Program-made: the position numbers and the translations under genes
DNA from: Chiloscyllium plagiosum
Taxonomy: Eukaryota
Direction: 5' to 3'
Assembly: GCF_004010195.1 (NCBI RefSeq)
Contig: NC_057749.1
Location: forward strand, 6,779,416-6,843,415
DNA: 64,000 nt
Shown here: positions 2,211-63,950 of the stretch, piece by piece
Layout of the letters: each line of letters opens with the position of its first letter
Position numbering within the stretch: position 1 is the first letter of the stretch
The notes under the pieces: model-generated
Told to the model about the DNA's origin: nothing
What the model saw: the letters and a program-made list of their open reading frames with translations, nothing else
The model's database searches: none

Positions 2211-3024
2211 TCAGTCTCCAAGCAGCTGATAGGAGATGGTAAAGTTTCTCCCATGGGTTCTGTTTCCACATTATAACAATGACTATTCTTTAAGAGTGGC
2301 TGTAAAAAACTTAGAAATGCCCTGAGACCCTGGGAGGAGCTGTATAAGCACAAGTTATTTTGGTTTCTTCCACCTTGCCTCATTGATTGTGACATCAAGT
2401 TAGAAAAGTTAACACCTTTTCCTTCATTAATTATTTGCACATCAAGAAATGAGATAAGATTAAGACCACTGTTGAAAGAATCTCTTCTCAGAAACCCTCC
2501 ATCCCCAGTTTGGTAAAGCAAACCTGTGCAAACTGAAAGGTATGAATTTATCAGGGTTGGGAGAGAGAAAAGAAAATTAATTTATTTTCTTCCCCTCACC
2601 ACCACTTCCAGCACAGACCTAAGTTCACGGCTTCCTGAAGCATATGGACAGCGTGACCTGAACTGAGTGTGAATGGGGTAGCTTTTCTAATTAGGAAGCT
2701 CTTGCAGCTCCTGGGATTAAAGCTACTAACTTCAAAGATCAGCCCTCAAGAGTATTTCATGCAGTGAGTAGAGTGCTACCATCAGTGTTACATAAGTACA
2801 AGACATTTTCTGCCATATGCTCCTCTATTCCATTGACACTAGTACTTCAACAACAGCCAACCTCAGAGTACAACTCGATCAGTACTGAAACTTTCCTAAA
2901 GATTAGTTAAAGCACAGCAGCAGACTTAGTGGTGCTTATTCAGCTGTTGACGAGGATAAGAATCTTTCGGCAGGATGTGGCTGGAATCTTCCAATTTCTG
3001 CCTGCAAGGCTGTACAGGACGTTC

Positions 3025-3600
3025 ATAAGTTGATAAGGTATAGGAGCAGAATTAGGCCATTCGGCCTATCGAGCCTGCTCCACCATGCGATCATGGCTGA
3101 TATGCTCCTCACCCCCATTTTCCTGCCTTCTCTCCATATCCCTTCAACCTATTACCAATTAAAAATCTGTCTAACTCCTCCTTAAACTTACTCACTGTGC
3201 CAGCATCCATTGCACTTTGGGGTAGGGAATTCCACAGATTCACAACCCTTTGGGAGAAGTAGTTTCACTTTAATTCTGTTTTAAATTTTTTACTCCTTAT
3301 CCTAAGACTGTGATATCTTGTCCTAGAATGGCTGACAAGGGGAAGCATTCACTCCACGTCTATTTTATCCACACCTTTTATCATCTCGAATACCTTAACT
3401 TGATCTCCCTTCATTCTTCTAAATCTTTTAAGTTCATTTTTGGAGTACTGTCTGCAGTTAAGGTCACTTTGCTATAGGAAGGATAGAACTTAATTGGAAA
3501 GGGCGCAGACTAGATTTAAAAGGATGTTATTGAGGCTGGATGGTTTAAGTTATAAGGACAGGCTGGACATTGGAGGATTTGAGCTATCCTATGACTATTT
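3025..3600. mobile_element. CR1 fragments (minus 3025-3430, plus 3435-3600)
   Basis: CR1-like 3' UTR and RT remnants similar to other copies in the window. Confidence 0.65.
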
Positions 3601-4969: not shown

Positions 4970-5620
4970 TCAATCAGTGTCTTCAGGTCACCATTGATCA
5001 GAAACTTAACTAGAGCAGCCAGGTAAATTGTCTAGTAAAAGAGAATATGTCAGAAGCTGGACATTCTGCTGCAAGTAATTTATCTCTAAACTCCTAAAGG
5101 GTTTCCATCAGCTGCAAGGTACAAGACAGAATACACTTGTCCATTTGCCTAAATGAATATACTCCAACAGCACTCAAGAAACTCAACATCATCCAGAACA
5201 AAGCAGGGAGTGCTTGATTGGCACCCCATCTACCACCTTCAACATTCCCTGCCTTCACCAATGATGGGAAGTGGCAGCAGTGTGTACTGTACAAGAGATG
5301 CCCTGCACTAACGGCAAAGGCTTGCTTTTCAACACCTTCCAAACCCCATGATTTTTTAACCACCGAGAAAGATAAGAGCAGCAGACTCTTGGAGACACAA
5401 CCAACCGCAAGTTCCCCTCCCAACCGCACATCAGTTTCACTTGGAATGACATTGTTGTCCTCTCACTGTCCTTTGGTCATAATTGGGGAATTCTCTTCCT
5501 AATGGCACTGATTAACTCCCTTCGTCACACAGACTTCAGGAAGGTGGCTCATCACCACTTCCTCAGGGATGGACAACGCACACTGGTCTTATCTGTGATA
5601 TGCACATCCATGATTGAATA
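4970..5620 (+). mobile_element. Decayed 3' part of a second LINE family (CR1/L2 group)
   Basis: Similar to 62480-63950 and 29395-29790. Ends in a gctcatcaccactt...cacatccatgattgaata tail. Confidence 0.65.
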
Positions 5621-5744: not shown

Positions 5745-6700
5745 AGAGAGAAAGAGATGACTGATGGTGAGTTTAACCTGTGGGTCACCATTTCCCAGAT
5801 GAGGGGAGAGGTTGAGAAGGAAAGTCTTTCATGGTTACCTGAATGTGGAGGTGCCGGTATTGCCTGGGGTGGACAAAGTCAGAAGTCACACAACACCAGG
5901 TTATAGTCCAACAGGTTTGTTCGAAATCACAAGCTTTCGTAGTGCTGTCCCTTCGGCGGGTGATCTGGTGCAGTGCTCTGAAAGCTTGTGATTTCAAATA
6001 AACCTGTTGGACTCATAGAATCCCTATAGAATGGAAGCAGACCATTTGGCCCATCGAGTCCACATCAACCCTCAAAAGAGCATCCCATCCACTCCTCTAC
6101 CCTATATCTCCACATTTTCTCATGGTTAATTCAGTTAGCCTGCACATCCCTGAACACTATGGAGCAATTTACCATGGCTAACCCACCCATCTCTGGACTG
6201 CGGGAAGAAACTGGAGCAACCAAAGGAAACACACACAGATACAGCGAGAATGTGCAAGCTCCACACAGAAGTCACCTGAGGGTAGAAATGAACCCGGGGC
6301 CCGATGCTGCGAGGCAGCAGTGCTAATCACTGAGCCACTGAGTTGCCGTATAAAGCCGGGTGTCATGTGACTTCTGACACGGTGACCTCAGCCAGGGCTG
6401 AAATTGAGGTAAAAACAATGAATGCAGATGCTGGAAACCAGATTCTAGATTAGAGTGGTGCTGGAAAAGCACAGCAGTTCAGGCAGTATCTGAGGAGCAG
6501 AAAAATCGACGTTTCAGGCAAAAGCCCTTCATCAGGAATACAGCTGATGAAGGACTTTTGCCAGAAACGTCAATTTTCCTGCTCCTCAGATGCTGCCTGA
6601 CCTGCTGTGCTTTTCCGGCACCACTCTAATCCAGGGCTGGAATTGAGCCTATGCTGTTGGCATCATTCCACATCTCAGACCAACTGAGCTAACTCGGCAT
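5745..6700. mobile_element. Nested cluster: short tRNA-SINE interrupted by a PLE family-2 hairpin (itself interrupted by an HE1-like SINE at 6015-6349) and by a PLE family-1 hairpin (6409-6630)
   Basis: Interrupted elements resume collinearly. 17-bp TSD ccagggctg(a/g)aattgag at 6392-6408 and 6631-6647. Confidence 0.75.
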
Positions 6701-11507: not shown

Positions 11508-12190
11508 GAGTCATAGAGTTGTAAATAAGGAAACAGACCCTTCGGTCCAACTCATCCATTCTGACCAGATATCCAGTCCCATGTTTTCAAAGATTCATTC
11601 ACAGGATGATGGTGTCGCTAGCTAAGCCAGAATTTGTTGCCCATCTCTATTCTGCCAGAGGGCAGTAAAGAGTCAGCTACATTGGCAACATTTGGCCCAT
11701 ATCCCTGTAAACCCTACTTATTCATGTACCCATCCAGATGCCTTTTAAATGTTGTAACTGTACCAGCCTCCACTGCTTCATCTGGCAGCTCATTCCATAC
11801 ACACAACATCTTCTGTGTGAAAAAGTTGCCCTTTACGTCCCTTTTATATCTTTCCCCTCTCACTCTAAATCTATTCCCTCTAGTTTTGGACTCCCCCTAC
11901 CCTGGGGAAAAGACTTTGGCCCATGCCCCTCATGATTTTATCATTTTTAAACATCAGGTATTGAAAAAATGAGAAGATTACTGTGTGCAAGACATTGGCA
12001 TGGATAATTGGAGTTTGGAATACAATCCTTTGTATTAAAATTCTCCAAATAAAGTGACAGTACTGGATGGGGATATGAATAGGAAGGGTTTAGAGGGATA
12101 TGGACCAAGTGCTAGCAAATGGGAGTAGATTAAGGATGAGATGGAGCGCAAGGTCTGCTTCTGTGCTGTACATCTCAACGACTCTATGAT
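11508..12190. mobile_element. CR1 3' fragments (minus 11508-11945 with a SINE piece inserted; plus 12064-12190)
   Basis: CR1 3' UTR and tail motifs. Confidence 0.7.
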
Positions 12191-14275: not shown

Positions 14276-14414
14276 ACCTAAGCTGTTTTGCCCACAAGTC
14301 CACATGATATCAACATGTTGGGCCATGTTCATGACATTCCTCAATATTAACCCTTTCAGACCCATGTTCAACAGTCGTGAAAAAAAACTTCGATTTAGGT
14401 TTTTAAAAAAAAAC

Positions 14415-15060
14415 CTGTTCATGGGATGTGTTTGCTTCTGGCTACTGCCAACACTTATTGCCCATCCCTAATTGCCCAGTGGGCAGCTAAGAGTCAACCA
14501 CATTTCTGTGGGGCTGGAGTCACATGTAGACCAGATAAGAACAACAATTGTCTTGCTTCCTTCCCGAAGTGACATTAATGAGCCAAATCGGTTTTCCCAA
14601 ACAATTATTTCATGGCCCACATTAGACTCTTAATTCCAGACCTTTTTTTAACTAACTTCAACTTCACCATCTCCCATGATGGGATTCAAACCTGGGTCTG
14701 TAGAACAGTACCTGGGTTGCTGGATTAATAATCGAATGACAATACCACTAGGCCAACACCTTCCTGTTGCTAACTCCTTTGCAATGATTGCACTTGTTAA
14801 GCTTTCTTTTATTCTTTCATGGGCTGAAACTCTTGTTGGCAAGCCCAGCTTTTGTTGCCCAATCCTAATTGCCCCTAAACTGATTGAATTGCTAGGGCAT
14901 TTCAGAGGGCAGTTAAGAGTCAAGCATATTGCTGTGGGTCTGGAGTCACATGTAGGTGAAATCAGGAAATGACAGCAGATTCCCTTCCTAAAGGTTTTAG
15001 AGAACCAGATGGGTTTTTATGATAGTCAATTATGGGTTCATGGTCACCATTATTAGTAGG
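14415..15060 (-). mobile_element. Two copies of tRNA-headed SINE family B
   Basis: Shared body gagtcaaccaca...ggagtcacatgtag. B-box-like gggattcaaacc. Confidence 0.75.
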
Positions 15061-19881: not shown

Positions 19882-20570
19882 GGTAAAGGTAATGCCCTAG
19901 TGGTATTACTGCTAGAGTGTTAATCCAGAGATGAGAGTGTGTTGCTGAAAAAGCGCAGCAGGTCAGGCAGCAACCAAGGATCAGGAAAATCGATGTTTCG
20001 GGCTGGAGCCCTTCATCAGGAATGCTTCAGGGCAGAGGAGAGGACTTGGGGAGTACAATGAGAGAGGGACTCACTGAGATCTTTGTAGAGAGAGAAGGAG
20101 AACTTCTTGAAGGTAGGCATCCTTGGAAGAGGCTTCGCAGTGAGGTTGAATTCAACTAGGAGACAGTGAGGTCTGCAGACGCTGGAGATCAGAGTTGAGA
20201 GTGTGTTGCTGGAAAAGCACAGCAGGTCAAGTAGCATCCGAGGAGCAGGAAAGTTGACATTTCGGGCTGGAGCTCTTCATCAGGAATAATTTTTGGAGGT
20301 CCTGGGTTTGAATCCAACCATGGCGGATGGTGTAATTTGAACTCAGTAAAATTTGGAATTAAGAGTCTAATGATGACTGTGAATTGATTGTTGGAAAAAC
20401 CCACCTGGTTCACTGATGCCCTTTTGGGAAGAAAATTACCATCTTTACCTGGTCTGGCCAACATGTGACCCACAGCAATGTGGTTGACTCTTAACTGCCC
20501 TTTGGACAATTTGGGATGGGTAATAAATGCTGGCCCAGCCAGTGCCGCTCTCATCCCATGAATGAATTAA
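19882..20570 (+). mobile_element. SINE family B (+) interrupted by a tandem PLE terminal-repeat pair (19932-20286, minus)
   Basis: Head ctagtggtatta...taatccagaga resumes at 20287. Tail taaatgctggcc...catcccatgaatgaa. Confidence 0.8.
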
Positions 20571-20669
20571 AAAATAGTCACCATGATTTCGTGGCATCAC
20601 ACTGCTTGGCACTCCAGCAAACTGACTGCCCTTCAGTTGTACTTATTGCTTTCACAAAGCAGGCCATCT

Positions 20670-29394: not shown

Positions 29395-29790
29395 CTTGAC
29401 TTAGCTCAAGTCTCCTCCTAAAAATATTCGAGCCTGGGCTAGTAAGTGGAAAGCAACATTTGCACCAAGTGCCGGGGAGGACTGTTTCCAATAAGAGAGA
29501 ATCTAGCCATGACATTCAATGGCATTGCCATCACTGAGTCCCCTTCTGTCAATATCTTGGAAGTATGCATTGACCAGAAACTGAACTGGACCAGCCATAT
29601 TGATAGATCATCCCACACTCTGCGGAATATTTCTAGCAATGTTCTGTCACTCGTTCCTGATAAGAATCTGGTGCCATCCAGGGCAAAGCAACATGAGCTG
29701 TATTCCATTCACCATTTCAGCCATTCACTACCTGCAGCTTCAGCACACTGTGAGAACAGAGCGTAGCATCCACACTATGCATGATGCTAG
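29395..29790 (+). mobile_element. Second LINE family RT fragment
   Basis: FNGIAITESPSVNILEVCIDQKLNWTSHI in ORF 29446..29766. Confidence 0.7.
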
Positions 29791-29814: not shown

Positions 29815-30630
29815 GATCATAAGATGTAGGAGAAGGGTTGGTCATTTAACCCAATGAGTCTGCTCCACCATTTGATCATGGCTGATACATTTCTCAACTT
29901 CATTCTCTTTTCCCCATAAACTTTGATCCCCCTTAATAATCAATAACCAAACTATCTTTGCCTTAAATACACTTAATGATTTGGGTTCCACAGCTCTCTG
30001 TGGCAATGAGTTCCACAGATTCACCACCCTCTGGCTGAAGAAATGTCGCCTTAGCTCAGTTCTAAAGGATCATCCCTTCACTCTGAGGCTGTGCCCTCAG
30101 GTTCTAGTCCTGCCCATTACTGGAAACATTTTCTCCATGTCCAATCGATCCAGGCCTCTCAGTATTCCTTCAGTTTCAATGAGATCCCCCCACCCCCACC
30201 CAGCCTTGCAAATTCCATTGAGTCCAATCCAGAGCCCTCAACTGTTCCTCACATTACAAGCCCTTCATCCCTGGGAGTCATGATTTGGAGACGCTGGTGT
30301 TGGACTGGGTGTACAAAGTTAAAAGTCACACAACACCAGGTTATAATCCAACAGGTTTATTTGGAAGCCCTAGCTTTCGGAGTACCGCTCCTTTATCTTG
30401 GAAGTAAGCAACGCTCCGAAAGCTAGGGCTTCCAAATAAACCTGTTGCATTATAACCTGGTGTTGTGTAATTTTTAACTTCATCCCTGGGATCATTCTTG
30501 TAAATCTCCTCTGAGGGCCAGCACATCCTTCCATAGATACGAGACCCAAAATTATTCACAATATTCTAAAAGCAGTCTGATCAGAGCCTTATAGAGTCTC
30601 AGCAGTGTATCTTTGCTGTTGTATTCTAAT
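29815..30630 (-). mobile_element. CR1 3' fragment interrupted by a PLE family-2 hairpin (about 30277-30477)
   Basis: cttcatccctggga is duplicated around the insert (about 30263 and 30478). Confidence 0.8.
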
Positions 30631-31074
30631 ATGAAAATACCTTCCATACCTACAAGCTCCAACACCTAGAAGAACAAGGGCAGTAGATACACCACCTGCA
30701 AGTTCCCCTCCAAGTCACACACCACACTGACTTGTGAATATATTCAGTGTCGCGAGTTCAAAATCCTGGAACTCCTTCCCTGACAACATGGTGGGTACAC
30801 ATGTACTGCACAATAGGAAGGCAGCTCAACACAATCCTCTTTGGAACAATTGGGGCAGACTAACAAATAAAAATACCGGGAGGCTATTATTGGAGATGTT
30901 GTACAAATCAATAGATCAAATAATGACTTCAGAAGAACGCATTCACTCTTGTGACAATGAACATTGAACTAACATACCACAGGCCGTGTAGTCATTGGGC
31001 ATGCCCTGACTAGGCATTGACTGCACAAGTCACAGGAAGTGAGCAGTGATGTCATCATTGACACATTTAAAAAA

Positions 31075-32065
31075 AATATTCACAGGATGACAGCACTTCT
31101 GGCTAGGCCAGCATTTATTGCCCATTCCTTTTCCCAAAAGGTAGTTAATGAGTCAACCATTTTGCCGTGGGTCTGGAGTCACGTGTAGGCCAGACCAGGT
31201 AAGGATGTCAGATTTCCCTTTTTAAGGGCCATCAGTGAACCAGATGGTCTTTCCGTCAATCAACACACTGTCATCATTCGACTCTTAATTCCAAATTTTT
31301 GCCTCACAGGGGCAAGTGAGCTTATCATTGGATTATTAATCCAGAAATTCAGCCAATGTTCTGGGGACATGGATTCAAATCCCACCACGGCAGATAGTGG
31401 AATTTGAATTCAATAAATAATCTGGAATTCAGTGTCTAATGATGACCATGAAGCCATTGTTGATTGTTGTGGAAAACCTTTGCTTTGAGAAAAGGAAATC
31501 TGTCATTCTTACACCTGACTCCAGACCTACAACAACATTGAATCATTGAGTCCCTACTGTTTTAGAGCAGGCCATTTTATCCATAGTAACTCTCAAAGAA
31601 CATCTCACCCAAACACCTCTATAACCTTGCATTTCCCATGGCCAATCCACCTAGCCTACACATCTTTGGACTATGGGAGGAAATCCACACAGACACAGGG
31701 AGAATGTGCAAACTCACTACAGACAGTCACTCGAGGCTGGAATCAAACCCAGGTCCATGGTGCTGTTAGGTAGCAGTGCTAACCTGGAAGGTTGGAACTG
31801 AGGTAATGTGGGGGAAGGGGAAATGAGGAAACCGGTGAAGTCCACATTGATGCCCTGGGGTTGAAGTGTTCTGAGGCAGAAGATGAGGCGTTCTTCCTCC
31901 AGGCGTTGGGTGGTGAGGGAGCAGCGGTGGAGGAGGCCCAGGACCTGCATGTCCTCCGCAGAGTAGGAGGGGGAGTTGAAATGTTGTGGGATTGATTGGT
32001 GCGGGTGTCCCGGAGATGTTCCCTGAAGCACTCTGTGAGGAGACGTCAAGTCTCCCCAATGTCGA
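31075..32065. mobile_element. Cluster: SINE B copies, HE1-like SINE (31545-31782), PLE family-1 fragment (31785-32065, minus)
   Basis: Similar to copies above. RLEEERLIFCLRTLQPQGINVDF is a PLE endonuclease remnant. Confidence 0.75.
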
Positions 32066-32715
32066 GGAGTGGGGGTCAGAGAATGCCTTCACTAAGTGAA
32101 CCTACACCAAAAAGACTGCAGCAGTTCAGGAAGGCAGCTCACCCACATTTCCTCAAGAGAAACCGGGGATTGATAAGAAATCCTGGCTGCATCCTACGAA
32201 TTAATTACAAAAACGGTTTCTTTATTACCCGGGAGAGAGAGCTGCAAAGAGAAATAAAATAAATTTATTTTATTTTGTCATGCAAGGGACTTTATTTTAC
32301 ATCCCGTTGAGTATCTTTATTCAAGCAATCACTTCCCATTACTTGACACTGACACCAGTTTCCCTTCTGTTCTTTGCAGGATATTCTGCCTGTAGCTGAA
32401 ACTATGGAACTTTAGCAATGAACAGACAATGTAAGCAGTATCAGTTGACACCATTGTGCCAATCCCGGAATTAGAGGCAGGGTCTACGGCTGCTTACAAA
32501 CACAGCAAACATCAAAGTAAACAAGGTCTATCCATAAACAAAATCAGAAAGCGCTGGAAAAACTCAGCAGGTCTGGTAGAATCTGTGGAGAGAGTTAATG
32601 TTGCAGGTCCACTGACCCTCCTTCAGAACTGATTGTAGCTGGGAAAAGATTGGGACATAGGCTGAAGATGGGATGGAGGAGGAAAAGGAATAAAAAATAA
32701 GTGGAGATGGAGCCC

Positions 32716-36879: not shown

Positions 36880-37470
36880 GACTGATATGTTGAGGAACTG
36901 ACAAGGGAGCAGCCTGTCCTAAATTTGGTATTATGCAATGAAAATGAGTTCATTAATTAATCATGTTATTCTTTAGGGAAGAGTGACCATAATATGGTAG
37001 ACATCTGCACTGGGATGGAAGGTGAAGGGGTCAAAGTGAAACTAAAGTCCTGAATCTAAACAAAGAAAAGTATAAACGAACGAAGGGTGAGTGGTGTATG
37101 ACAGATTGAATAACTTGATTAAAAGGCATGGCAGTGAGCAAGCAATGGCTAATATTTGAGGAACAAGTATATGCACCACAACATGTTTGTGTTGTAAAGT
37201 CACAATTGGAGAAGTGGCCAATTATGGATAATGAAAGAACTTAAGAAGAAAACTTAAAGCAGAGCAATAAATCCAATAAGGAGCCTTAAACAATTCTTAC
37301 AAACAGGGTAGCAAAACTAAGGATTGGGATTAATTTAACCTCAGCAAAGGAGGACCAAGACATTCATTAAGAATGCAAAAGTATCTGAGTAAACTTGCAA
37401 GGAATATAGAAGCGCATTGTAGGAGTGTCTATAAATATTTAAAAGCAAAAAAGGTTACTGAGGACAAAGT
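36880..37470 (+). mobile_element. Old CR1 ORF2 internal fragment
   Basis: ttagggaagagtgaccataatatg (LGKSDHNM, endonuclease end). Many stops. Confidence 0.6.
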
Positions 37471-38445
37471 GAAGGAGAGGCAGGAATTATTGCGAGACTT
37501 TTAATTGAGAAACTCAACTAATGTTCTGGGATCCAGGTTCAAATCCCGGCATGGCAAATTAGGAATGTACTGAAGACCATGAAACCATTGTCAATTGTCA
37601 GAAAAGCCCATCTGGTTCACCTTAAGGAAAGGAAACTTGCCATCCCTACCTGGTCTGACCTACATGTGACTCCAGACCCACAGCAATGTGGTTGACTCTC
37701 GAGTGCCCTCTGAAATAGCCTAGCCAGCCACTCAGTTGCATCAATCGCTACAAAATGTCATGACAGAACTGAAACCGTACGGACTTCCCAGCATCAGTCT
37801 AGACACTGGAAAAGACAGCAGCAGAGACAGTCATGTCAACCCTGAAAAGTCCTCCTTACTGGGGGCTAGACTAAATATAGTCTGATGTAGCCATATGCAC
37901 AGAATCATACCTTACAGACAATGTCCCAGACACCACCATCACCATCTCTGGGTATGCCCTGTCCCACTGGCAAGACAGACCCAGCAGAGATGGTGCCACA
38001 GTGGGATACAGTCAGGAGGCACTTGCCCTTGACGTCCTCAACATTGACTCTGGACCCCATGAAGTCTCATGGCTACAGATTAAACATGGGCAAGGAAACC
38101 TCCTGCCGATCACCATGTACCACCTTCCGTCAGCTGATAAATCAGTGCTCCTCCACTATGAAAGACACTTAGAGGAAGCACTGAGGATGGCAAGGGCAGG
38201 AAAAGTACTCTGGATGGGGAGTTTCAATGTCCGCCACCAAGAGTGGCTCAGCAGCAGCATTACTGATCAAGCTGGTCGGGTCCTGAGGGGTATAACTACT
38301 GTACAGGGCCTGTGGCAAGTGGTGAAGGAATCAACGAGAGGGAAAAACATATGTGACCTCATCCTTACTAATCTGCCAGCTGCAGAAGCATCTGTCCATG
38401 GCACTGTCAGTAAAAGTGACCACCGCACAGCCCTTGTGGACTCCT
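37470..38445 (+). mobile_element. 5' part of a LINE: tRNA/SINE-B-like head followed by an APE-type endonuclease ORF remnant
   Basis: B box ggttcaaatccc at 37536-37547. ORF 38001..38447 has LWMGSFNVRH (GDFN-like), STRGKNICDLILTN and SDH motifs. Confidence 0.8.
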
Positions 38446-38570: not shown

Positions 38571-41009
38571 CTAAATGTACTACCTGAAATGATGGTGGAT
38601 GTAGATTCAGTGACAGAATGGGTACTTGAAGTTGAAAACATTTTCCGGGTTACAGTGAAAAGTCTAAGTAGATTGTTTCTTCAAACACTGGGGAGGTGTA
38701 GTGGTAATGCCACTGGACCATCATTCAGACCCCAGGCTGCTATGGTTTGGGTTTGAATCCACCATCATTTAATTCAATGAAAAACAATCTGGAAAAAATA
38801 GTAGTCTAATAAAAACCATGCGACCATGTTGTTAAAACCCCATGTGGTTCCCTGATGGTTACTGTCCTTGTCTGGAACCTACAGGTAGACTCTAAAGATT
38901 GACTCTTAATCATTGTTTGGGCAATTAGCGATGAGTAATAAATGCTGGCCTAGCCAGAGATATCCATCTCCACACCAGCTGAGAATCTCACCTTTTCAAC
39001 CTTGCCAATCGCCTGAGGTCAGGTGACCCTCAGGTTAAACCACCACCGGCCATCTCCCTTGAATGAGAGAGCCCCATGGCCCTCTAGGAGCATGGCTAAT
39101 TCACCTTCCATCCCATAAATAAATTAAAACTAGCACAGACAAGAAGTGCTGAATGGCCTTCATTCTGTATCATTTTCTGATCCCAGTGCATAAATGGTTA
39201 AGAACTAGAACCTTTGGGAGAGTGATAATGACCCCAAAATCTCACGCAAGAGGTCTGTGTTTAAATTCCATCTCAGGAAGTGATGGTGATGGAGGTTTGT
39301 CATAACTGGTCCAAGTGAGTTGATTGACAAAAGCTATGAATTATGCTACATTCATGGAGAAAATGTTTCAGACCATGGGAAATGCGGGGCTATGGGGATG
39401 GGGATGGGGCTGGGTCTTGGTGGCCTGTCTGTCAGAGGGACCGTGCAGACTTAATGGGCTGAAAGGCCTCTATCTGAACTGTCGGAATTCTGGGAAAACA
39501 TCCAGCCGGCGTTGACAACTTGGCTGGATGCAGATAAACAGGAATTGAAAGCCTCGTAGGCAAGGAAGAGGACAGGAGGATTGCTGGTTACTGTCGAGTC
39601 AGTTTTTAATCTCCAATATCTAATTTCCAACATTCTTAAAGATCCACCATTAACAGGGTACTCTTAACAGAGAGAAAATAAATGCGTAACAGGGACAGGA
39701 CAGTCACACCTCAGTCTGTACATACAATAAAGGGATTATCCTGCAGTTGGCACATGGTGACATTGCTACCTCATTCCATCAACACAATAAAGCCACAGTA
39801 TTCTCCAATGCTGCGATTACAGTCCTGTTCACATCTCATTCCATGCACATAATAACAGGGATTACGCAGAGGTATGATTACAATATAGCACAATGGGCCA
39901 GATGTTTCTTGATTTGCATATAAACAGACTTTAGACCTCGAAAATTTGCCTTGTAATAGTTTCTTTTCATATTGCAAAGAATACTGCTCAGTGTGACAGC
40001 GTTATTAACCTCCTAATGGCTGGGACGTTCGGGGAAGTTTCATTTTCTCTCTCAGAACAGGTCTTTCTTTTAATAAAAGTCCCACAATTGGATCTGTGAG
40101 ACGTGAGCAAGAAATAGATTCGAAAACGGCAATGAATGGAAAAAGTGCTCAGCAGTTCTGGCAGCATCTGTGGAGAGAAATCAGAGTTAAAGCTTCAGGG
40201 CCGGTGAATCAATCGAAATAGATGTGTTGCTGAAATATTACCTTTTGAATCTCAAAAACATGAAAACAAATGGGAGGCACGGGAGAGGTGGTGCTGAGGT
40301 TGAGCTGGTTGGTGTCACCAGTGTATATAGACAATGACATGTTTTTGGATGTTGTTCTAGATGTGCTGAGAAGTAGAATGGAGCTAAGTAGAGATTGGAA
40401 CTATATCTGGTAAATGTAACTTTCCCTATCTCTTCTCGACGCCAATGATCCACGAGCCCTCTAAACTCTCCACTTCCTTGTTTACACATATCTTAGCTCC
40501 ACCATTATTATTTATGACCTTCAGCTACCAGGGTTAGGCCTCACCTTGAGCACAATGGGTAGTTCAAGATACCATACAGTGGGAAGCCTGCAATTGCCTT
40601 GACTCCTGTGGTTGAAACTTTATTGCTGGAACAGCACAGCAGGTCAGGCAGCATCCAGGGAACAGGAGATTCGACGTTTCGGGCACAGGCCCTTCTTCAG
40701 GAAACTCCTGTGGTGCAATGGTAATATTTCTACCTCTTCAGCTATTGCTCCCAGGTTCAAGTCCTGCTTGCTCTGGACATGTAAACAGGTTGCTTAGACC
40801 TCTCCAGCCCTGGCTATACTCTTTTCCAGAAGGCATAGAAGTTCGAATACAAATGTGAATAATTTCAAGAACAGCTTCTTCCCCGCTGTTATCAGACGTT
40901 TTAAGCACTTGTCCAAATGCTTTCCTTGGATCCATGTGGCACTCCAGAGGTATTGGTGCGGAAGTGAGAAGAAATGCGATGGTTGATGCAATTGTGGCTA
41001 TTTTTAACC

Positions 41010-42029: not shown

Positions 42030-42600
42030 GGTCAGTAGTATTATCACGAGAGTGTTAAGCCAAAGAGAAAGTGAGGTCTGCAGATGCTGGAGAGTCAGAG
42101 TCGAAAAGTGTGGCATTTGATAAAGCACAGCAAGTCCGGCAACATCACAAGAGCAGGACGATCGATGTTTCGGACATAGGCCTTTCAACAGAATGCCCAT
42201 TTCTGATGAAGCGCTTATGCCCAAAATGTTGATTCTCCTGCTCCTCGGATGCTTCCTGACCTGCTGTGCTTTTCCAGCACCACGATTTTCGACTATTAAG
42301 CCAAAGACCACAGGTAATGTTCTCGGGAATTGGGTTCAAATCCCACCATCCATTTTACCAAATTTGAATTCAGTTAAAAAATATGAAATTAGAGAGGTAA
42401 TGGTGACCATTGTGAGGGGGAGGGGGCGTAAAAATCTGGTTTACTAATGTCCTTTTGGAGAGGAAACTGCCATGGTCACATGGCTCACATGTGACTCCAG
42501 ATGCCCAGCAATAATGGCTGACTCTTAATGGTCCTCTTGGCCATTAAGGGCGGGCAATAGGGATGAGTTAGCTAGCAATGCCCATATCCCATTCATGAAT
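42030..42600 (+). mobile_element. SINE family B interrupted by a PLE family-1 hairpin (about 42067-42290)
   Basis: TSD core ttaagccaaaga at 42055-42066 and 42296-42307. Confidence 0.8.
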
Positions 42601-43989
42601 ACAGAAAAGTATTCGATAATGAAGACACTTCAGTTCCCAACCACCATGAGGCCAAACTTTCCATTTCTTGTTCCCCTTCTTGCTACAGGTATTCTTACTC
42701 CTTTGAGTCCATCTTTATTTGTCCCATTGCCACCCTGTTTGCCTGACTCAATCAACCTTTTCATCACCGACTCACTTTGGCTTTCCTGCCATTATTTCCT
42801 GTCCCGGTTTTATCCCCTGTCACTCTTCACTTACTTCCACCCTCAAACCATTCGTCGAAGTTCTCACTCAACAGGTGGGACGGTGGACCAGACCCACAGA
42901 CAGCTGTCTTGAATCATTTGCTTTCATTTCAAAAGCAGCTTGTCCACATACAGTCAGGGAACACTGTGCGGTTGGAATTAAAGATTCTATGAAGTGATGG
43001 ATTTCCTTTCAGAATTGCAAATGGCAGCCCTACCCCGGCTGTTTCTATCCCCACAGGATGTGAGCTACGCTGGTGTTTATTGCCCATTGCTAAACCATCC
43101 CTGAACTGAGGGGCTTGCTCGGCATTCCACAGGGCGGTTAAGAGTCAACCATGTTGCTGTGAGTCTGGAGTCACATGTAAATCAAACCGGATAAGGACAA
43201 CAAATGACTTCCTTCCTTAAAAGGACATCAGTGAACTAGATTGGTTACTTTGAAAAACAATCCAACATAATCATCGAGTGATTCGGCATGGAAACAGACC
43301 ATTCAATCCAACCAGACCATAATCCTAACCTAAACTAGTCTCACCTGCCTGCGCTTGGCCCATATCCCTCCAAGTATTTCTAGTTTTCATGTTTTCCATT
43401 ACTAGGGCTAGCTTTAAATTCTAGACTTCTTTTGGAATTTAGATTCCATCAGCTATGGTGGTATTTGAACAACCCCTTTCCCTTTTCCAGAGCATTAGAG
43501 GATACTTGTTGGATTATCAGATGAGTGGCATTGTATTACACCAAATTGTCCCAATAGGTGCTTATCAAACAGTATCTCTGTTTCTATTGAGCAGATCTAG
43601 AAATTCAGAGCTGAACCCTGAAACTTAATTTTTAAACTAGGAACACAATTTTCCAGGATTTACATGAAAGATAAAGACAGTAGGAAGGTTTTTTGAAGGC
43701 ATTCCCAAGCCACACGAGAGGACCTGTCCAATTCAGCTGAATATGCTGGGAGCATGAAAGCATCTGTTGCAAACTCACCTATTGGCCTCTAGATGGTGCT
43801 GCAATTCCAAATTTCCACAAGTATTTTTCCAAGACCCAACGGTGCATCAGTGATTAACCTCTTAGTAGCCACTACATCTACCTCCCTGCACCAAAATTTA
43901 ACAGCTTATTTTTTTCTTTAAAAGGCTGCCTGTAATATGAATTAAGAAGTAATATAGAACTCACTAATCCTACTTTGCAACTTGTCACT

Positions 43990-49439: not shown

Positions 49440-50480
49440 GAGGCTCTGTGAATTTGGTCATTCTGGACTGGGACAGGACTTACCCAGGAAGATGGATGCA
49501 GATGTTTGGGATGTTGGCATGATCCAGTGAACGGGCTGTTCCTTGAGCAATCTGTGGGACAACGCCTTGATCTTTGGCATAAATCCCTAGATTTCCAAAA
49601 GGAGGACTTTGCCAGGCCAGGATGTGCAGCAGATGTTCACGGTGCCTGTGATGCGTCTAGTTTTATATCTTTTTGACGCTTCAGTTGTAATTTGGTACAA
49701 CTGACAGTGCTTGTTCGGCCATTTATAGAGACACAGAGTCATACAGCACGGAAACAGACCCTTCGGTCCAACCAGTCCATGCCGACCATAATCCCAAACT
49801 AAACTAGTCCCACCTGCCTGCACTTGGACTCTACCTCTCCAAACATTTCTTCTTCATGGACTTATCCAAATGCCTTTTAAACATTCTAACTGTACCTGCA
49901 TCCACTACTTCCTCTGAAAGTTCATTCCACACACAAACCCCTCTCTGTGTAAAAAAAAGTTGCCTCTCATGTCTTTTATAAAATCTTTCTCCTTTCACTT
50001 TAAAAATATACTCCCTGGTCATGAAATCCCCTACTTGCCAGTCACCTTATCTATACTCCTCATGATTTGATAAACCTCTATAAGGTTACCCCTCAACCTC
50101 CAACAGTCAAAAATGTCCCAGCGTATCAGCCTCTCCTCATAACTCAAACCCTCCATTCCCAACAACAAACTGGTAAATCATTTCTCAACCCTCTCTCGCT
50201 TAAAAACATCCTTCTGAATGAACAATATCATTGTGGGGCTGGAGTCACATGTGAGCCAGATTGATTAAGGATGGCAGATTTCCTTCCATAAAGGATATTA
50301 GTGACTTTTTTATAATGAAAAGTTACTTGTTAGCTGAGCAGGGAAAAAAAAATAACATAGAGGAAGTGTGAGGTGTCTCAAGATCAAAATTGTTGAAGGG
50401 ATTTGAACTTGTGGCTCTGAAGAGTTAACCTGTGTTTGCATTGACTACTCTGATAACATTACCTCTCTGGTAGTGCAGTT
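49440..50480 (-). mobile_element. Second, older copy of the tRNA-headed LINE 5' end, split by a CR1 insertion (49725-50215)
   Basis: Reverse complement reads gttcaaatccc...catgtgactccagccccacaatg [CR1] aaatggccgaacaagcactgtcagttg...aaagtcctcctt...cctgtcccag, collinear with 37540-37965. Confidence 0.7.
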
Positions 50481-55018: not shown

Positions 55019-55909
55019 AAACAATAAGCACATTCAAAGTCACTTATCTCTGTTTTAAGTAGGCAACACTAAATTTTTAAAACAGTTCCAAACTAATGAA
55101 ATTCATTTTTTAATGCAATTTGTCCTCATCGCTTTACTGGTTTAACCACAAACCCATTCTAGTGAATCTGTACTGCATCCTCTCCCAAATTAAAATGAAT
55201 CTTTGCTGAGGCATGGTTGTTAGAACTTTACTCTCCTGTATCAGGAGAGAGGAGAGGAAAACTTTGTTTAATGTCTTGTACAAAAGGTAACATCTCCGAT
55301 AGAGAAGTACTCCAGCTCATTTTGGGCTAGAATGCCGACTGACATTTTTCCTCAAGTGCTTAGCATGTGACTTGAATCACAAAAGTGTTACAGTGCAGAG
55401 AAGGTCATTCGGCCCATTGTGTCTGTACCAAGCAGATTACCTGACTGCTCACTTTTTCCTGGATCTCCCGCCACTACTCCTTCCCACTCCCTCTCTACCT
55501 CCCCAGGTCCTATCAGGACCAGGAAGTAGTTCTTCTTACCTGGTTTTGCAGAGAGGAAGTTGGGCTCCCTGTGGAAGTTCCACTTTCTAGACCAATGGGC
55601 AATTGGGTCAGGCAACCTACAGCTTGCATTGGCAACTATTGCTCCATCTCTGCCGAATTTTAATTCTGTCAACAAGAGAAGGTTCTAGAAACGTAGAGGG
55701 GAATCTCTACAACCTTCCGACTCGGAGGCAAGGTGGACATTTCACTTGTACTTTCCTTGGCATTGATAAATAAAATCAAGAAGTCATTGTTGACCTTGGG
55801 GAGTTAGTTGTGCCAGAGGCAGGGAAGAGACCAATCTTCTTCAGTAACATTCTTAATTCTCAGTTATCTCACTTGGCTATACTGTGGTGAAGAAACAATT
55901 CAGTACCTT

Positions 55910-56740
55910 TTTATTCATTCATGGGATGAGGGCATTGCTGGGTAGGCAGTATTTATTGCTCATCCCTAACTGCCCAGATGGCAGTTAAGAATCAACCACG
56001 TTTCTGTGAGTCTGGAGTCCCAGACCAGGTAAGGATGGCAGCTTCCTTCCCTAAAGGACATTAGTGAACCCAGATGGGTTTTACTGATAATCAACAGTCA
56101 TCATTAGTCTCTTTTTTCGACATTTCTATTGAATTCAAATTCCACCATCTGCCCTGTCAGGATTTGAACCAGCGCCCCTGGAACATTACCTGGGTCTGTA
56201 GATGAACAATACCATTAGGCCATCACCTCCCCAGATACCTGCGCCAATGATGTGGTAATTCTCAGCAGAGGCCTACGCCTTCACCTTGATCCATGCTTGA
56301 TATGAAGGGGTGATCCTCAAGCTATCTCTCACGCTCTTTCTTGACAAGTAGAGGGCCTACAGTTCCTTATGGACGGGGACTAATCACAGTAAAATTGCAG
56401 AATATTAAATCATAGGGGGCCATGCACAAATTTGCATAACGTTAAATCATCGGGGGCCATGCATAAATTTGTGCAGAGCTTTGAGATAGCCAAGGAAACC
56501 CTTTTTTAAAAATATTCGTTCACAGGATGTGGGTGTCGCTGGCCAGGACAGCATTTATTGCCCATCACAAATTGCCCGGGGGGAATTAAGAGTCAGCCAC
56601 ATTGCTGTGGGTCTGGAGTTGCACACAGACCAGACCAGGTAAGGATGGCAGCTTCCTTTCCTGAGGGATGTTCATGAACCAGGTAGATTTATCCTGACAA
56701 CATGCAATGGATTCATGGCCATCATTAGACTCTTAATTGT
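55910..56740 (-). mobile_element. Two SINE family B copies (55910-56232 near complete; 56515-56740)
   Basis: Head accattaggccatcacctcccc, B box ggatttgaacc, shared body and tail. Confidence 0.8.
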
Positions 56741-57044
56741 ATAAGCCCATTAGTGTTAAAAAAAATGAAATGAAAGAACAGTAATGCAGTAAATATGAGA
56801 AAAATATCCGTACTTTTCAATTTGTTCACTGTTTACAGAACTTGTACAGAAAAAGGCTCTGAAAAACATTGGCTCTGGAAAGCATTTGTAATCTTTTTCT
56901 GCTTTAGCGAGCCACCTTTGGGTAAAGCTGCCATGTTATTGATGCTGTCAAATATATTTGCCCTGTTTTCATACCGCCATGTGAAATCCTGGAGCATCTC
57001 CTATGGTCTTGGTGGTTTCAGCCTGAGATGAGCAGATGGTTTCA

Positions 57045-60950: not shown

Positions 60951-61924
60951 ATTCCATCCTTGCCACTCTGAATTGGAAACCATGCCAGTCTCGAAAGACA
61001 GAATGTCTTTGGATCTGGCATTATAGAGGTCAAAACCAATGAAATGTGCACCGAGCTCAGCAAACTGCCTCAGCTAGCCAACAACAAGCTGAATCTAGTC
61101 TTTGGAATCACGCGGTGCGAAAGGAGGACTTCAACAAGACAGATGATTTAAGCTGCCACACTTCATCAGCACAACCTGACATGGGAAATATCCAGGCATG
61201 ATAGATGACAGAGTTTCTCCAACAGACTTCAATTGATAAAGCTGATGATATGCTGGTGAGTTATGGTGCTCACAGATTCGATATATGATTATATGGTTCC
61301 AGTCACTACCTATTAACCTAATGTGGTTGATATGTGTAGCAGCAGTTTACAACTGAAAAACAAATCTTTGAGATAAATTCTGTCCAGATCTTTGGCGACT
61401 GTGGTGTTGGGTTCACAGTCAGCTTTCCTCAGTTGGGTGTTATTATTGCTGGAATTCAACATACCAACAGCAAAAAAAGAGACATTGTTTCTGCATTACA
61501 ATGTGTATTGGAGTACCAGAACTGACAGTAATGTGTCTGATAGTTGGGGTGGGATTTGCCTTTTCTCAATGTTCCTGCTGACAAATGGAAAATCCACACG
61601 AGAGTGGTGAGTTGAGCCCTGGGGCAGTAGATGGGGTGAAGGACACTGAGAAGTAGAAAGACAAAAGGAGCAAGGATTAATGTTCGTTATTCTCCCCTCT
61701 CATTCTCGACCACCTTTCCCCAGTTTTTAAGCTGATTGCATTCGTGATTGCATACAGCAAGGGTGCAAAAGAGGCAGGTGGTGAGTCATCCTTGGATCTG
61801 CCATGCCATGAGACAATGAACTAGACTGAAGATGCAGCAGTTGGCGAATTAGATGGCAAATAGTTCAGTTTGCATCATCAGATACTGATGCATCTAATGT
61901 TCATGAACAGTGAAGACAGTACAA

Positions 61925-63950
61925 TATTTAGGCTTGGGCTGACAAATGTCAAGTAAGATTCATGTCTCACAAGCAATGACTGTCTCCAGTAAGAGAGACT
62001 CCAAAACGTCTCTGACATTCAATGAGATGAATCCCCCATCATCATGATCTTATGAATTACCCTTAGCCAAAAGTTTAATCAGACTGACCACAAATTCCTG
62101 AAGCCATAGGAGAAAGTCGGAAACTGGGAATAGTGGTGAGTGACCCGCCTTCTGAGTTCCCAAAGCCTGTCTGTTTATCTACCACTTCAGGAATATTCAC
62201 CACCTTCCTGGTTGAGTCCTGCTCCAACTGGCTCTCGAGACTTGATACCATCCAGGACAAACCAGCCTCCTCCACTAGCTCTACATCCACTGCCTTAAAC
62301 ACGCCCTCCACCCAGAACAAGACACACTGTCAAAGATCTTCAGGTAGCACCTTTCAATGTTCAACACCATTTGTGACTCCTCAGATACTGAAGCAGTCTG
62401 TGTCCTATATCCTTTCCAACTTTTCCTGCTGCTGCATTTATCTCTGAGGTCCATGTATATGGCAGTCATTTCTGGAAATGGAAGTCAATACATCTGCACG
62501 ATGACCAATGTTTGCAGACCCTCTGAGTGGCTGCATGGCTGAGGGGGATCATTGTCTGTATCCATCTGCAGAAGAGCTGGACAACATCCAGGCTAATAGA
62601 TGGCATACATCATTCACACAACACAAATGCCACACAATGACCAGCCCTGATAAGACAGAATTGCCATCACACTTTCCTGCTGAACACATTATCTCCCCCT
62701 ACTGTCTACAGCCTTGGGGGTGCCACTGACCAGAAATGGAAATGGGAAAACTACCATTTAAATATTGGAGCTATAAGAACATATTAGAGGTAGAAATCCT
62801 GCAGTGAGTAACTCATCTCCTGCTTCCCTAATACCTGTCCATCATCTACAAATCACGAATGTGATAGAATACTCCCCATTTGCCTGAATGGGTTCAGCTC
62901 CAAAAACACACAAGATGCTTGACACCTTCCAGGACAAAACAGCCTCTCTATTCACCCTCCATCCACAACCTGAAGCATTCACTCCCTTCACCACCAAGCA
63001 CAGTGGCAGCAATGTGTACCATCTGCAAGATGCCCTGCAGTAATTCCCAAAGGTACTTCATTAGCACCTTTCAAATTCATGTCCTGGGAGGACAACAGCA
63101 GCTGATTGATGGGAACACCACGCCCTGCTAGCTCCCCTGGGGTTCACATACCATCCCTACTAGATCACTGTTCCTTCAATGGCACTGGAGCAAAATTCTG
63201 TATATCCCTTCCTGCCAGCACTATGGATGACCCTACACCACTTAGAATCACAGAATCCTTACAGTGTGGAAGCAGGCCATTTGGCCCATCAAGTCTGAAG
63301 AGCATCGCACCCAGAAACCCCCTCACCCACCCTAACCACGTAACCCTGCATTTCTAATGGCTAACCCACCTAGCCTGGACACTATAGGCAATTTAACATG
63401 GCCAATCCAACTAACCTGCACATCTTTGTGGGAGGAAACCAGAGCACCCAGAGGTAACCCACACAGACACAGGGAGAATGTGCAAACTCCACACTGACAG
63501 TCGCCCGAGACTGGAATCGAACTTGGGACTGTGAGGCAGCAGTGCTAGTCACTGGGCCACTGCGCCAGTCCTGGACTGGTGTGGTTTGAGAAGGCAGCCC
63601 ATCAATTAGGGATAGACAATACATATAAGCACAGCCAGCAACACCCACACCACATATGAATAAACAATAATTGCGATTTCTAACACTGAGAAGGCCAAGG
63701 TGTGAGAACACTAATTGCAAGTTGCCTCCAAGTCACACATCATCTTGACATGGAATTATTTTGCCATTCTTTCATGATTTGGGTCAAAATCCTGGAGCTC
63801 CCAACCCCACAGCATTAGGGATGAAACATGGACTGCGGCAGTCCAAAAAGGCAGCTCACCACCACCTTCTCCAGGCTAATTCGGGACAGACAATAAATGC
63901 TAATGTTGTAAGGGACACCCACACCACGCGAACAAAACAAAATTGCATTA
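61925..63950 (+). mobile_element. Several decayed 3' fragments of the second LINE family, with an HE1-like SINE (minus) at 63244-63565
   Basis: LDNIQA and LDTIQDK remnants. Repeated 3' ends aaggcagc...caataaatgc. Confidence 0.7.

Follow-up and report, generated by a model that had tools for sequence, protein, structure and literature searches.

The window, by which we mean the whole 64,000-nucleotide stretch of Chiloscyllium plagiosum DNA analysed here, is repeat-rich DNA in which repeats nest constantly, and positions 37476-38444 (+) are recognisable from their sequence as the decayed 5' third of an elasmobranch Zenon element, a LINE of the CR1 group without an ORF1. From 5' to 3', the copy and the repeat that interrupts it comprise:

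37476..37547, + strand: tRNA-like head of the Zenon copy, with a decayed A box and an intact B box at 37536-37547
37548..37712, + strand: body, common to all copies of the short family SINE-B and corresponding to the LINE 5' UTR; 58-80% identity to 9 other window copies
37713..37737, + strand: junction segment (25 nt), kept only by the LINE and the long SINE form
37738..37880, + strand: LINE-only 5' region before the endonuclease, multi-copy as judged by contig depth and gene models P0041 and P0004
37881..38444, + strand: APE endonuclease remnant, 188 open codons, Pfam PF14529
38442..38572, + strand: unrelated repeat truncating the Zenon copy, with 12 other window hits and a hammerhead-like core at 38444

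The strings that a preliminary description of this DNA had quoted for the B box (37536-37547), the body (37649-37699) and the junction (to 37738) are found at those places, and its observation that head and body run on into an APE-endonuclease remnant, not into a SINE tail, is borne out. Beyond the body there is no SINE tail; instead come the 25-nt junction segment, ~140 further bases, and then the open frame at 37881-38444, which matches Exo_endo_phos_2 (PF14529) with an E value of 4.6e-9 and 36.6 bits against a cut-off of 27.4. This endonuclease has 540 relatives at E<=0.001, compared with which ~26 codons are missing from its frame near 37865-37885; it starts ~360-400 nt past the head, with no ORF of 100 aa ahead of it. 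In the copy that had been placed at 37470 the B box is intact, but the A box has decayed. The RT core is missing from the copy, which ends at the inserted repeat and does not resume beyond it. That repeat, which we take to be Penelope-like, is abundant, short and often present as inverted pairs (e.g. 20158-20285, 6423-6627, 40624-40702 and 42062-42294); a hammerhead-ribozyme-like core pattern was matched at 38444, 40700, 20019 and 26026, and an Rfam scan gave no match.

Self-BLAST, alignment and motif scans of the 64-kb window located 13 body-bearing copies, eight with a short joint to the SINE tail, two with a long joint, two that continue into the LINE and one that is interrupted. In the short form the tail follows directly past the position equivalent to 37712, and in the long form ~25 nt later. 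The copies other than the two that continue into the LINE are:

14805..15060, - strand: SINE-B long form, 5'-truncated; keeps the junction segment, head lost
43045..43250, - strand: SINE-B long form, 5'-truncated
14410..14765, - strand: SINE-B short form with head
55905..56245, - strand: SINE-B short form with head
38690..38965, + strand: SINE-B short form with head
20290..20575, + strand: SINE-B short form, from the B box on
42330..42600, + strand: SINE-B short form, from the B box on
31075..31300, - strand: SINE-B short form, without head
56510..56750, - strand: SINE-B short form, without head
11593..11684, - strand: SINE-B short form, only junction and tail
31315..31535, + strand: head and body, interrupted ahead of the junction

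At 31075-31535 two SINE-B/Zenon 5' parts stand back to back in opposite orientation with ~15 bases between them. The ~70-nt tail of SINE-B is the end of the LINE 3' fragments at 63654-63945, 63568-63670, 30629-30868, 32114-32184 and 4974-5600. By alignment, SINE-B is made up of the first ~240-260 nt and the last ~70 nt of the Zenon LINE, joined in two nested forms. The copy at 14805-15060 (-), singled out earlier for keeping the junction segment and then jumping to a LINE-type tail, does exactly that, its tail aligning with the LINE 3' ends at 63871-63936 and 63603-63667 and, one step upstream, with 30758-30868, 32114-32184 and 5400-5564; it belongs, as a refinement, to the minority long form and is headless. 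The SINE-B tail is also the commonest loose end behind 37712 in public contigs (627, 816 and 156 contigs in X1, X11 and X18, respectively). The body DNA patterns found no match in viral contigs, metagenome contigs or prokaryote genomes, three short SINE-B motifs were absent from the supplement of PMC5786205, and the body 17-mer occurred in no main text searched.

The 3' part of the LINE is represented in the window by separate fragments:

62591..63670, + strand: tail-bearing Zenon 3' fragment, interrupted by another SINE at ~63234-63562 (alignments, clade hits)
63654..63945, + strand: Zenon 3' end with tail (alignment to the SINE-B tail)
4974..5600, + strand: Zenon 3' fragment to the tail (alignments)
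61923..62332, + strand: Zenon 3' coding fragment (alignments, clade hits)
29423..29600, + strand: Zenon fragment, end of the RT region (alignments, clade hits)
30629..30868, + strand: Zenon 3' end (alignments)
32114..32184, + strand: Zenon 3' end (alignments)

These pieces were compared pairwise, a multiple alignment being coherent only at the tail, and the Zenon tails in the window, which belong to decayed copies, end in short A-rich runs. The SINE that splits the fragment at 62591-63670, presumably of HE1 type, is a second tRNA-headed family (63234-63562 and ~25 other window places) more abundant than SINE-B, and its position implies that it was inserted later than that Zenon copy. The suggestion that the endonuclease and the 3' fragments belong to one family is upheld in that both point to the same protein clade: in a 106-row quick tree, which carried no named Zenon reference, their best hits lie within a single 45-row clade (SH-aLRT 100) of 940-1200-aa endonuclease-RT proteins, the 3' hits being weak (23-62 bits). 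Gene models P0022, P0027 and P0077 link the Zenon endonuclease to RT-type sequence. We rejected canonical CR1/HER1 as the partner of SINE-B, since the canonical CR1 pieces have their best hits in another clade, and likewise a Vingi or RTE identity, the family being classed as Zenon by the RT tree of the published study (PMC13343379). A word-index protein search for longer relatives, a weak search, passed 0 of 1898 candidates, and Zenon-like proteins had no match in viral contigs. Two near-complete Zenon-like eukaryotic LINEs with poly-A ends (L001, 1214-4018; L003, 1501-4315) were found in bacterial MAG records, one of them in a 716-kb contig, and are probably host contamination.

No single window copy spans Zenon from head to tail. 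A second headed copy, more diverged than the one at 37476, lies on the minus strand:

50215..50465, - strand: second headed Zenon copy, head and body (alignment)
49725..50215, - strand: canonical CR1 3' fragment inserted in this copy at the end of the body (clade of best hits)
49470..49725, - strand: the second copy resumes with junction segment, 5' region and endonuclease start (alignments, protein relatives)

The end of the Zenon body at this CR1 insertion (49725-50215, -) resembles the CR1 microsatellite tail, and a microhomology-guided insertion is possible. Given how constantly repeats nest in this window, the joint at 37476-38444 might be thought a chance adjacency, or a SINE nested upstream of a truncated LINE. 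We rejected that reading, and regard it as having almost no probability, as the same junction letters are found in other loci and species: at the second window locus, in three gene models, in read contigs and in seven consensuses of five species. The gene models come from a comparison of the window with the 29 closest of 150 listed protein hits, three of which, all whale-shark models, carry body or junction ahead of the endonuclease: in P0089 body and junction are joined to it, P0041 runs from the junction through the endonuclease, and P0004 joins the endonuclease to an N-terminus that reads, by eye, as body. Predicted shark gene models P0089, P0015, P0045 and P0124 splice Zenon fragments into host genes and are likely annotation artefacts. 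In public contigs matched to the locus at 80% likeness, where depth is not copy number, X1 depth in the bins from junction to endonuclease was 3664, 154, 1126 and 564 against a flank of 10 (15-370x flank). Joints from 37698/37700 to 37902 were made by eight contigs of X11 and one of X1, among 15 joints listed of 1099, the letters between these points in the joining contigs being not known. Record 9 of X11, at a depth of 32.7, crosses the junction (37673-38063, with 22 differences) but is probably the orthologous locus and was not counted as independent.

Stuart et al. 2026 list ~1,003 consensuses (PMC13343379, Supplementary Table 2), of which the first 400 letters were compared, and among them are seven elasmobranch Zenon consensuses of 2886-3314 letters from white shark, whale shark, catshark, spiny dogfish and stingray, the species being read from the row codes CarCar_, RhiTyp_, ScyCan_, SquAca_ and HypSab_Zenon. 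These belong to the same family as the window elements, with the exact body and junction motifs in their first 400 letters, and, like the window copy, they are without ORF1 and have the endonuclease ~360-400 nt from the 5' end. All seven open with the head, body and junction of the window locus: the window body 17-mer occurs in seven rows and the junction 11-mer in six, all of them Zenon, the rest having been compared by eye. Five B-box 10-mers, sought in the same first 400 letters of the ~1,003 consensuses, matched six rows, again all elasmobranch Zenon; the ray consensus is missing one base of the B box. None of the seven in the table is headless, and the hagfish and coelacanth Zenon rows contain no B-box 10-mer in their first 400 letters. 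The longest genomic copies behind three of the consensuses measure 3299, 3299 and 3322 nt (Table 3 of PMC13343379), with RT and endonuclease coverage of 92-99.5% for those families; as the longest copies approach consensus length and cover RT and endonuclease, the head is not merely an assembly of shorter pieces. Near-intact copies exist, 1 of 1419 in whale shark and 3 of 612 in a ray (PMC13343379).

The joint is therefore neither confined to one or two loci nor replaced by an unrelated 5' UTR in any of the seven consensuses, and the proposal that an autonomous LINE family normally begins with this head and junction holds across the second locus, the gene models, the contigs and the consensuses. 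The anatomy of the headed Zenon and its recurrence are observations that we state with high confidence; the head is a real, family-wide feature. The LINE itself is in print as elasmobranch Zenon, described as a CR1-group element without ORF1, with a poly-A tail and placed in Zenon by an RT tree, and said there to be absent from repeat repositories (PMC13343379). The head goes unremarked in the main text of that paper, in which 'tRNA' and 'promoter' do not occur and 'SINE' occurs once, and neither the head nor a derived SINE is described there. A whale-shark preprint (10.1101/443036) names a 'CR1-Zenon like LINE' without giving its structure, and a search of the mostly open-access literature, with Repbase and Dfam outside its scope, returned no paper on the Zenon head or on SINE-B.

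The head has both boxes, A and B, of a type 2 Pol III promoter, and both are clear in the consensuses. By eye, the A box of the consensuses lies ~6-11 nt from the 5' end and the B box ~60 nt further, and those of white shark and catshark show a stem of five pairs closing a 7-nt loop, with AGT in the anticodon position, presumably a Thr assignment. A and B boxes plus an anticodon-like arm are what is customarily required before a SINE head is called tRNA-like. In the window, the B-box columns are the sole invariant columns of the seven aligned heads, so that the B box is constant in 7/7, and the A box is recognisable in some. Among these decayed heads, four Rfam scans and ARAGORN found no tRNA model, and RNAalifold returned no pairs and no consensus fold. 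The 11-mer head motif was matched three times against 1.38 expected, a count within chance. Thus, of the earlier proposal that a LINE had taken a tRNA-derived promoter as its 5' UTR, the head-bearing LINE 5' end stands, and the tRNA part finds no support from Rfam, ARAGORN or RNAalifold; on the evidence of the boxes and the arm we infer that the head of Zenon and SINE-B is tRNA-derived. Some LINEs of the Ingi group have small-RNA-like 5' ends, which could lower the novelty of the Zenon head.

Two known kinds of non-autonomous element resemble SINE-B. The first is the Persaeus SIDE of Lepidoptera, which is abundant, non-autonomous and composed of a Zenon LINE's 5' end joined to its 3' end, and which arose by internal deletion more than once (PMC6740152). 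Persaeus is described there as lacking tRNA, 5S or 7SL homology and a Pol III promoter, in contrast to SINE-B, whose A/B-box head is also present on the LINE; SINE-B is, as a SIDE should be, made only of the ends of its partner LINE, but it is neither headless nor free of Pol III promoter boxes. The second comprises the bipartite SINEs of RTE and Vingi (Bov-tA, AfroSINE, Ped-2, CoeSINE4 and SINE2-1_ACar), which like SINE-B combine a tRNA-type head, a body from a LINE 5' UTR and a LINE 3' tail (PMC5786205). In these, according to the same source, it was the non-autonomous unit that gained the head, and the LINE has none, whereas the Zenon LINE carries the head in 7/7 consensuses; only RTE and Vingi were found there as sources of SINE bodies, whereas the body of SINE-B comes from a CR1-group LINE. 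A precedent for a tRNA-like part in a LINE is shown by RTE-1_DAn and elements related to it, noted in that paper as LINEs with tRNA-like sequence, in a clade that differs from Zenon (PMC5786205). Other tRNA-headed shark SINEs with LINE tails, namely HE1 (a V-SINE with partner HER1), SacSINE1 (Deu) and the CmiSINEs (CORE), have HER1 or L2-type LINEs as partners and, unlike SINE-B, share the tail alone with them (PMC3747384, PMC5499810). To judge by its Zenon tail, SINE-B is presumably distinct from HE1, SacSINE1 and the CmiSINEs.

That SINE-B is built of the 5' and 3' ends of the LINE agrees with its earlier description as a deletion derivative, but the direction from LINE to SINE stays inferential; we lean towards it, at somewhat better than even. 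The route documented for the bipartite SINEs of RTE and Vingi (PMC5786205) offers a serious, if less probable, alternative in which the SINE came first: a bipartite non-autonomous Zenon would have gained a tRNA head (the Okada/Kojima route), and a LINE would later have taken the SINE 5' part. The transfer may have occurred by template switch or by recombination in the shared body, which would make SINE-B a donor or sister and not a deletion product, and to this version we give the same, lesser weight. The Zenon consensuses of hagfish and coelacanth and the related elements L001-L004 are without the head, from which it follows that the head was gained in the elasmobranch line, with a SINE as its likeliest donor. 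Against a SINE-first history, the simplest origin of the two nested junction forms is a pair of deletions from a longer template that carried the head, and the table offers no headless elasmobranch Zenon (0/7). In addition, the SINE and LINE heads of the window agree with the whale-shark LINE consensus in letters that the consensuses of the other species lack (by eye, in two to four copies), and such species-specific letters, common to SINE and LINE heads, fit repeated derivation or exchange. Deletion from LINE to SINE and capture from SINE to LINE can also follow one another.

The head is probably the internal promoter of both Zenon and SINE-B. On tRNA genes Pol III starts ~6-11 nt ahead of the A box, and the Zenon consensuses begin, by eye, at the same ~6-11 nt before theirs. 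A Pol III transcript of a whole LINE would have to avoid runs of T, and on the sense strand nine Zenon pieces totalling 3307 nt contain four runs of four or more (1.2 per kb), compared with 24 such runs (5.3 per kb) in 16 canonical CR1 pieces totalling 4541 nt and a rate of 5.25 per kb across the window. The binomial P of 0.0016 for Zenon against CR1 is overstated because inherited sites recur among the CR1 pieces. Every one of the four Zenon runs is absent from the paralogue aligned to it and so private to one copy, and by eye no T4 occurs in the first 400 letters of any of the seven elasmobranch consensuses. Relative to shuffles of the same Zenon pieces the deficit is not significant (P 0.14 for mononucleotide and 0.18 for dinucleotide shuffles), and two tilings chosen after seeing the sites gave P 0.07 and 0.39. 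The related elements L001-L004, from public assemblies, have 6.6-8.9 such runs per kb and no B box upstream, and the more distant L005-L007 have 1.7-3.2 per kb. Read-through by Pol III would thus appear to be permitted and mildly favoured, and whether Pol III makes the full-length Zenon RNA we would put at an even chance.

The main competitor, to which we assign about one chance in three, holds that Pol II makes the full-length RNA: the head, once captured, would provide a new 5' UTR and function as a chromatin element or an internal promoter for Pol II, with Pol III making only SINE RNA. LINEs are described as Pol II transcripts (PMC10886601, PMC5786205), and in Kojima 2024 (PMC10886601) non-LTR retrotransposons are treated as such, with the weak processivity of Pol III limiting transcript length; the scarcity of T4 is partly explained by base make-up, and a capped RNA would require no special translation. 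It is harder to reconcile a Pol II origin with a consensus 5' end that coincides with the tRNA +1 position and with A and B boxes that are kept while the spacer between them varies among species (both by eye), and the many upstream ATGs, nine in the 385 nt ahead of the endonuclease in the 37476-38444 copy, disfavour plain scanning. An improbable third reading is that the 5' end arises by processing, the element being co-transcribed from upstream and cut at the tRNA-like fold by an RNase P-type tRNA-processing nuclease. This would yield the same tRNA +1 end, has a parallel in the ribozymes of other single-ORF LINEs, and is in keeping with the anticodon-like arm visible by eye in the consensus; but no tRNA fold was recovered, and a true one would be expected to invite 3' cleavage as well, severing the LINE.

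By eye, six of the seven consensuses retain an ATG that begins a short reading frame, overlapping the endonuclease frame in another phase, and ahead of its first motif the endonuclease frame itself lacks an ATG, both in the window (37704-37880) and in the consensuses. The Zenon ORF might start by frameshifting, re-initiation or a non-AUG codon, each of which is possible.

The account that we favour overall, with rather more than even confidence, is a headed Zenon that is read by Pol III and gives rise to SINE-B by internal deletion. In it, a single-ORF Zenon of ~3.3 kb, encoding APE endonuclease and RT, would itself begin with the A-box/B-box head, acquired before sharks and rays diverged, and every full-length insertion would bring the promoter along. 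Pol III would most likely start at the head and read through the full LINE, and the uncapped RNA would be translated by a non-scanning route, a step that is purely hypothetical. In LINE/SINE pairs the LINE protein recognises the 3' tail and integrates the RNA by target-primed reverse transcription, and on that established basis SINE-B would ride on Zenon: the Zenon protein would bind the last ~70 nt of its RNA and integrate it in the same way, and internal deletions that spare ~240 or ~260 nt at the 5' end and ~70 nt at the 3' end would generate SINE-B, which retains both promoter and recognition tail and would be moved in trans. In its fullest form, a coding LINE of 3.3 kb transcribed by Pol III end to end, purged of oligo-T, translated without a cap and spawning SINEs by single deletions, the proposal falls a little short of an even chance.

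According to the textbook division, LINEs are coding and transcribed by Pol II, SINEs non-coding and transcribed by Pol III. Should Zenon, whose tRNA-type head has been kept in sharks and rays alike, prove to be transcribed by Pol III, that division would no longer hold, and the family would offer a naturally occurring Pol III transcript that is both long and translated. With either polymerase, the pair supplies a known source for a SINE body, which is an open question in PMC5786205, and it extends the bipartite origin of SINEs to the CR1 group with a one-step route from LINE to SINE. For the annotation of shark repeats, it means that SINE-B will be counted as Zenon, or Zenon as SINE-B.
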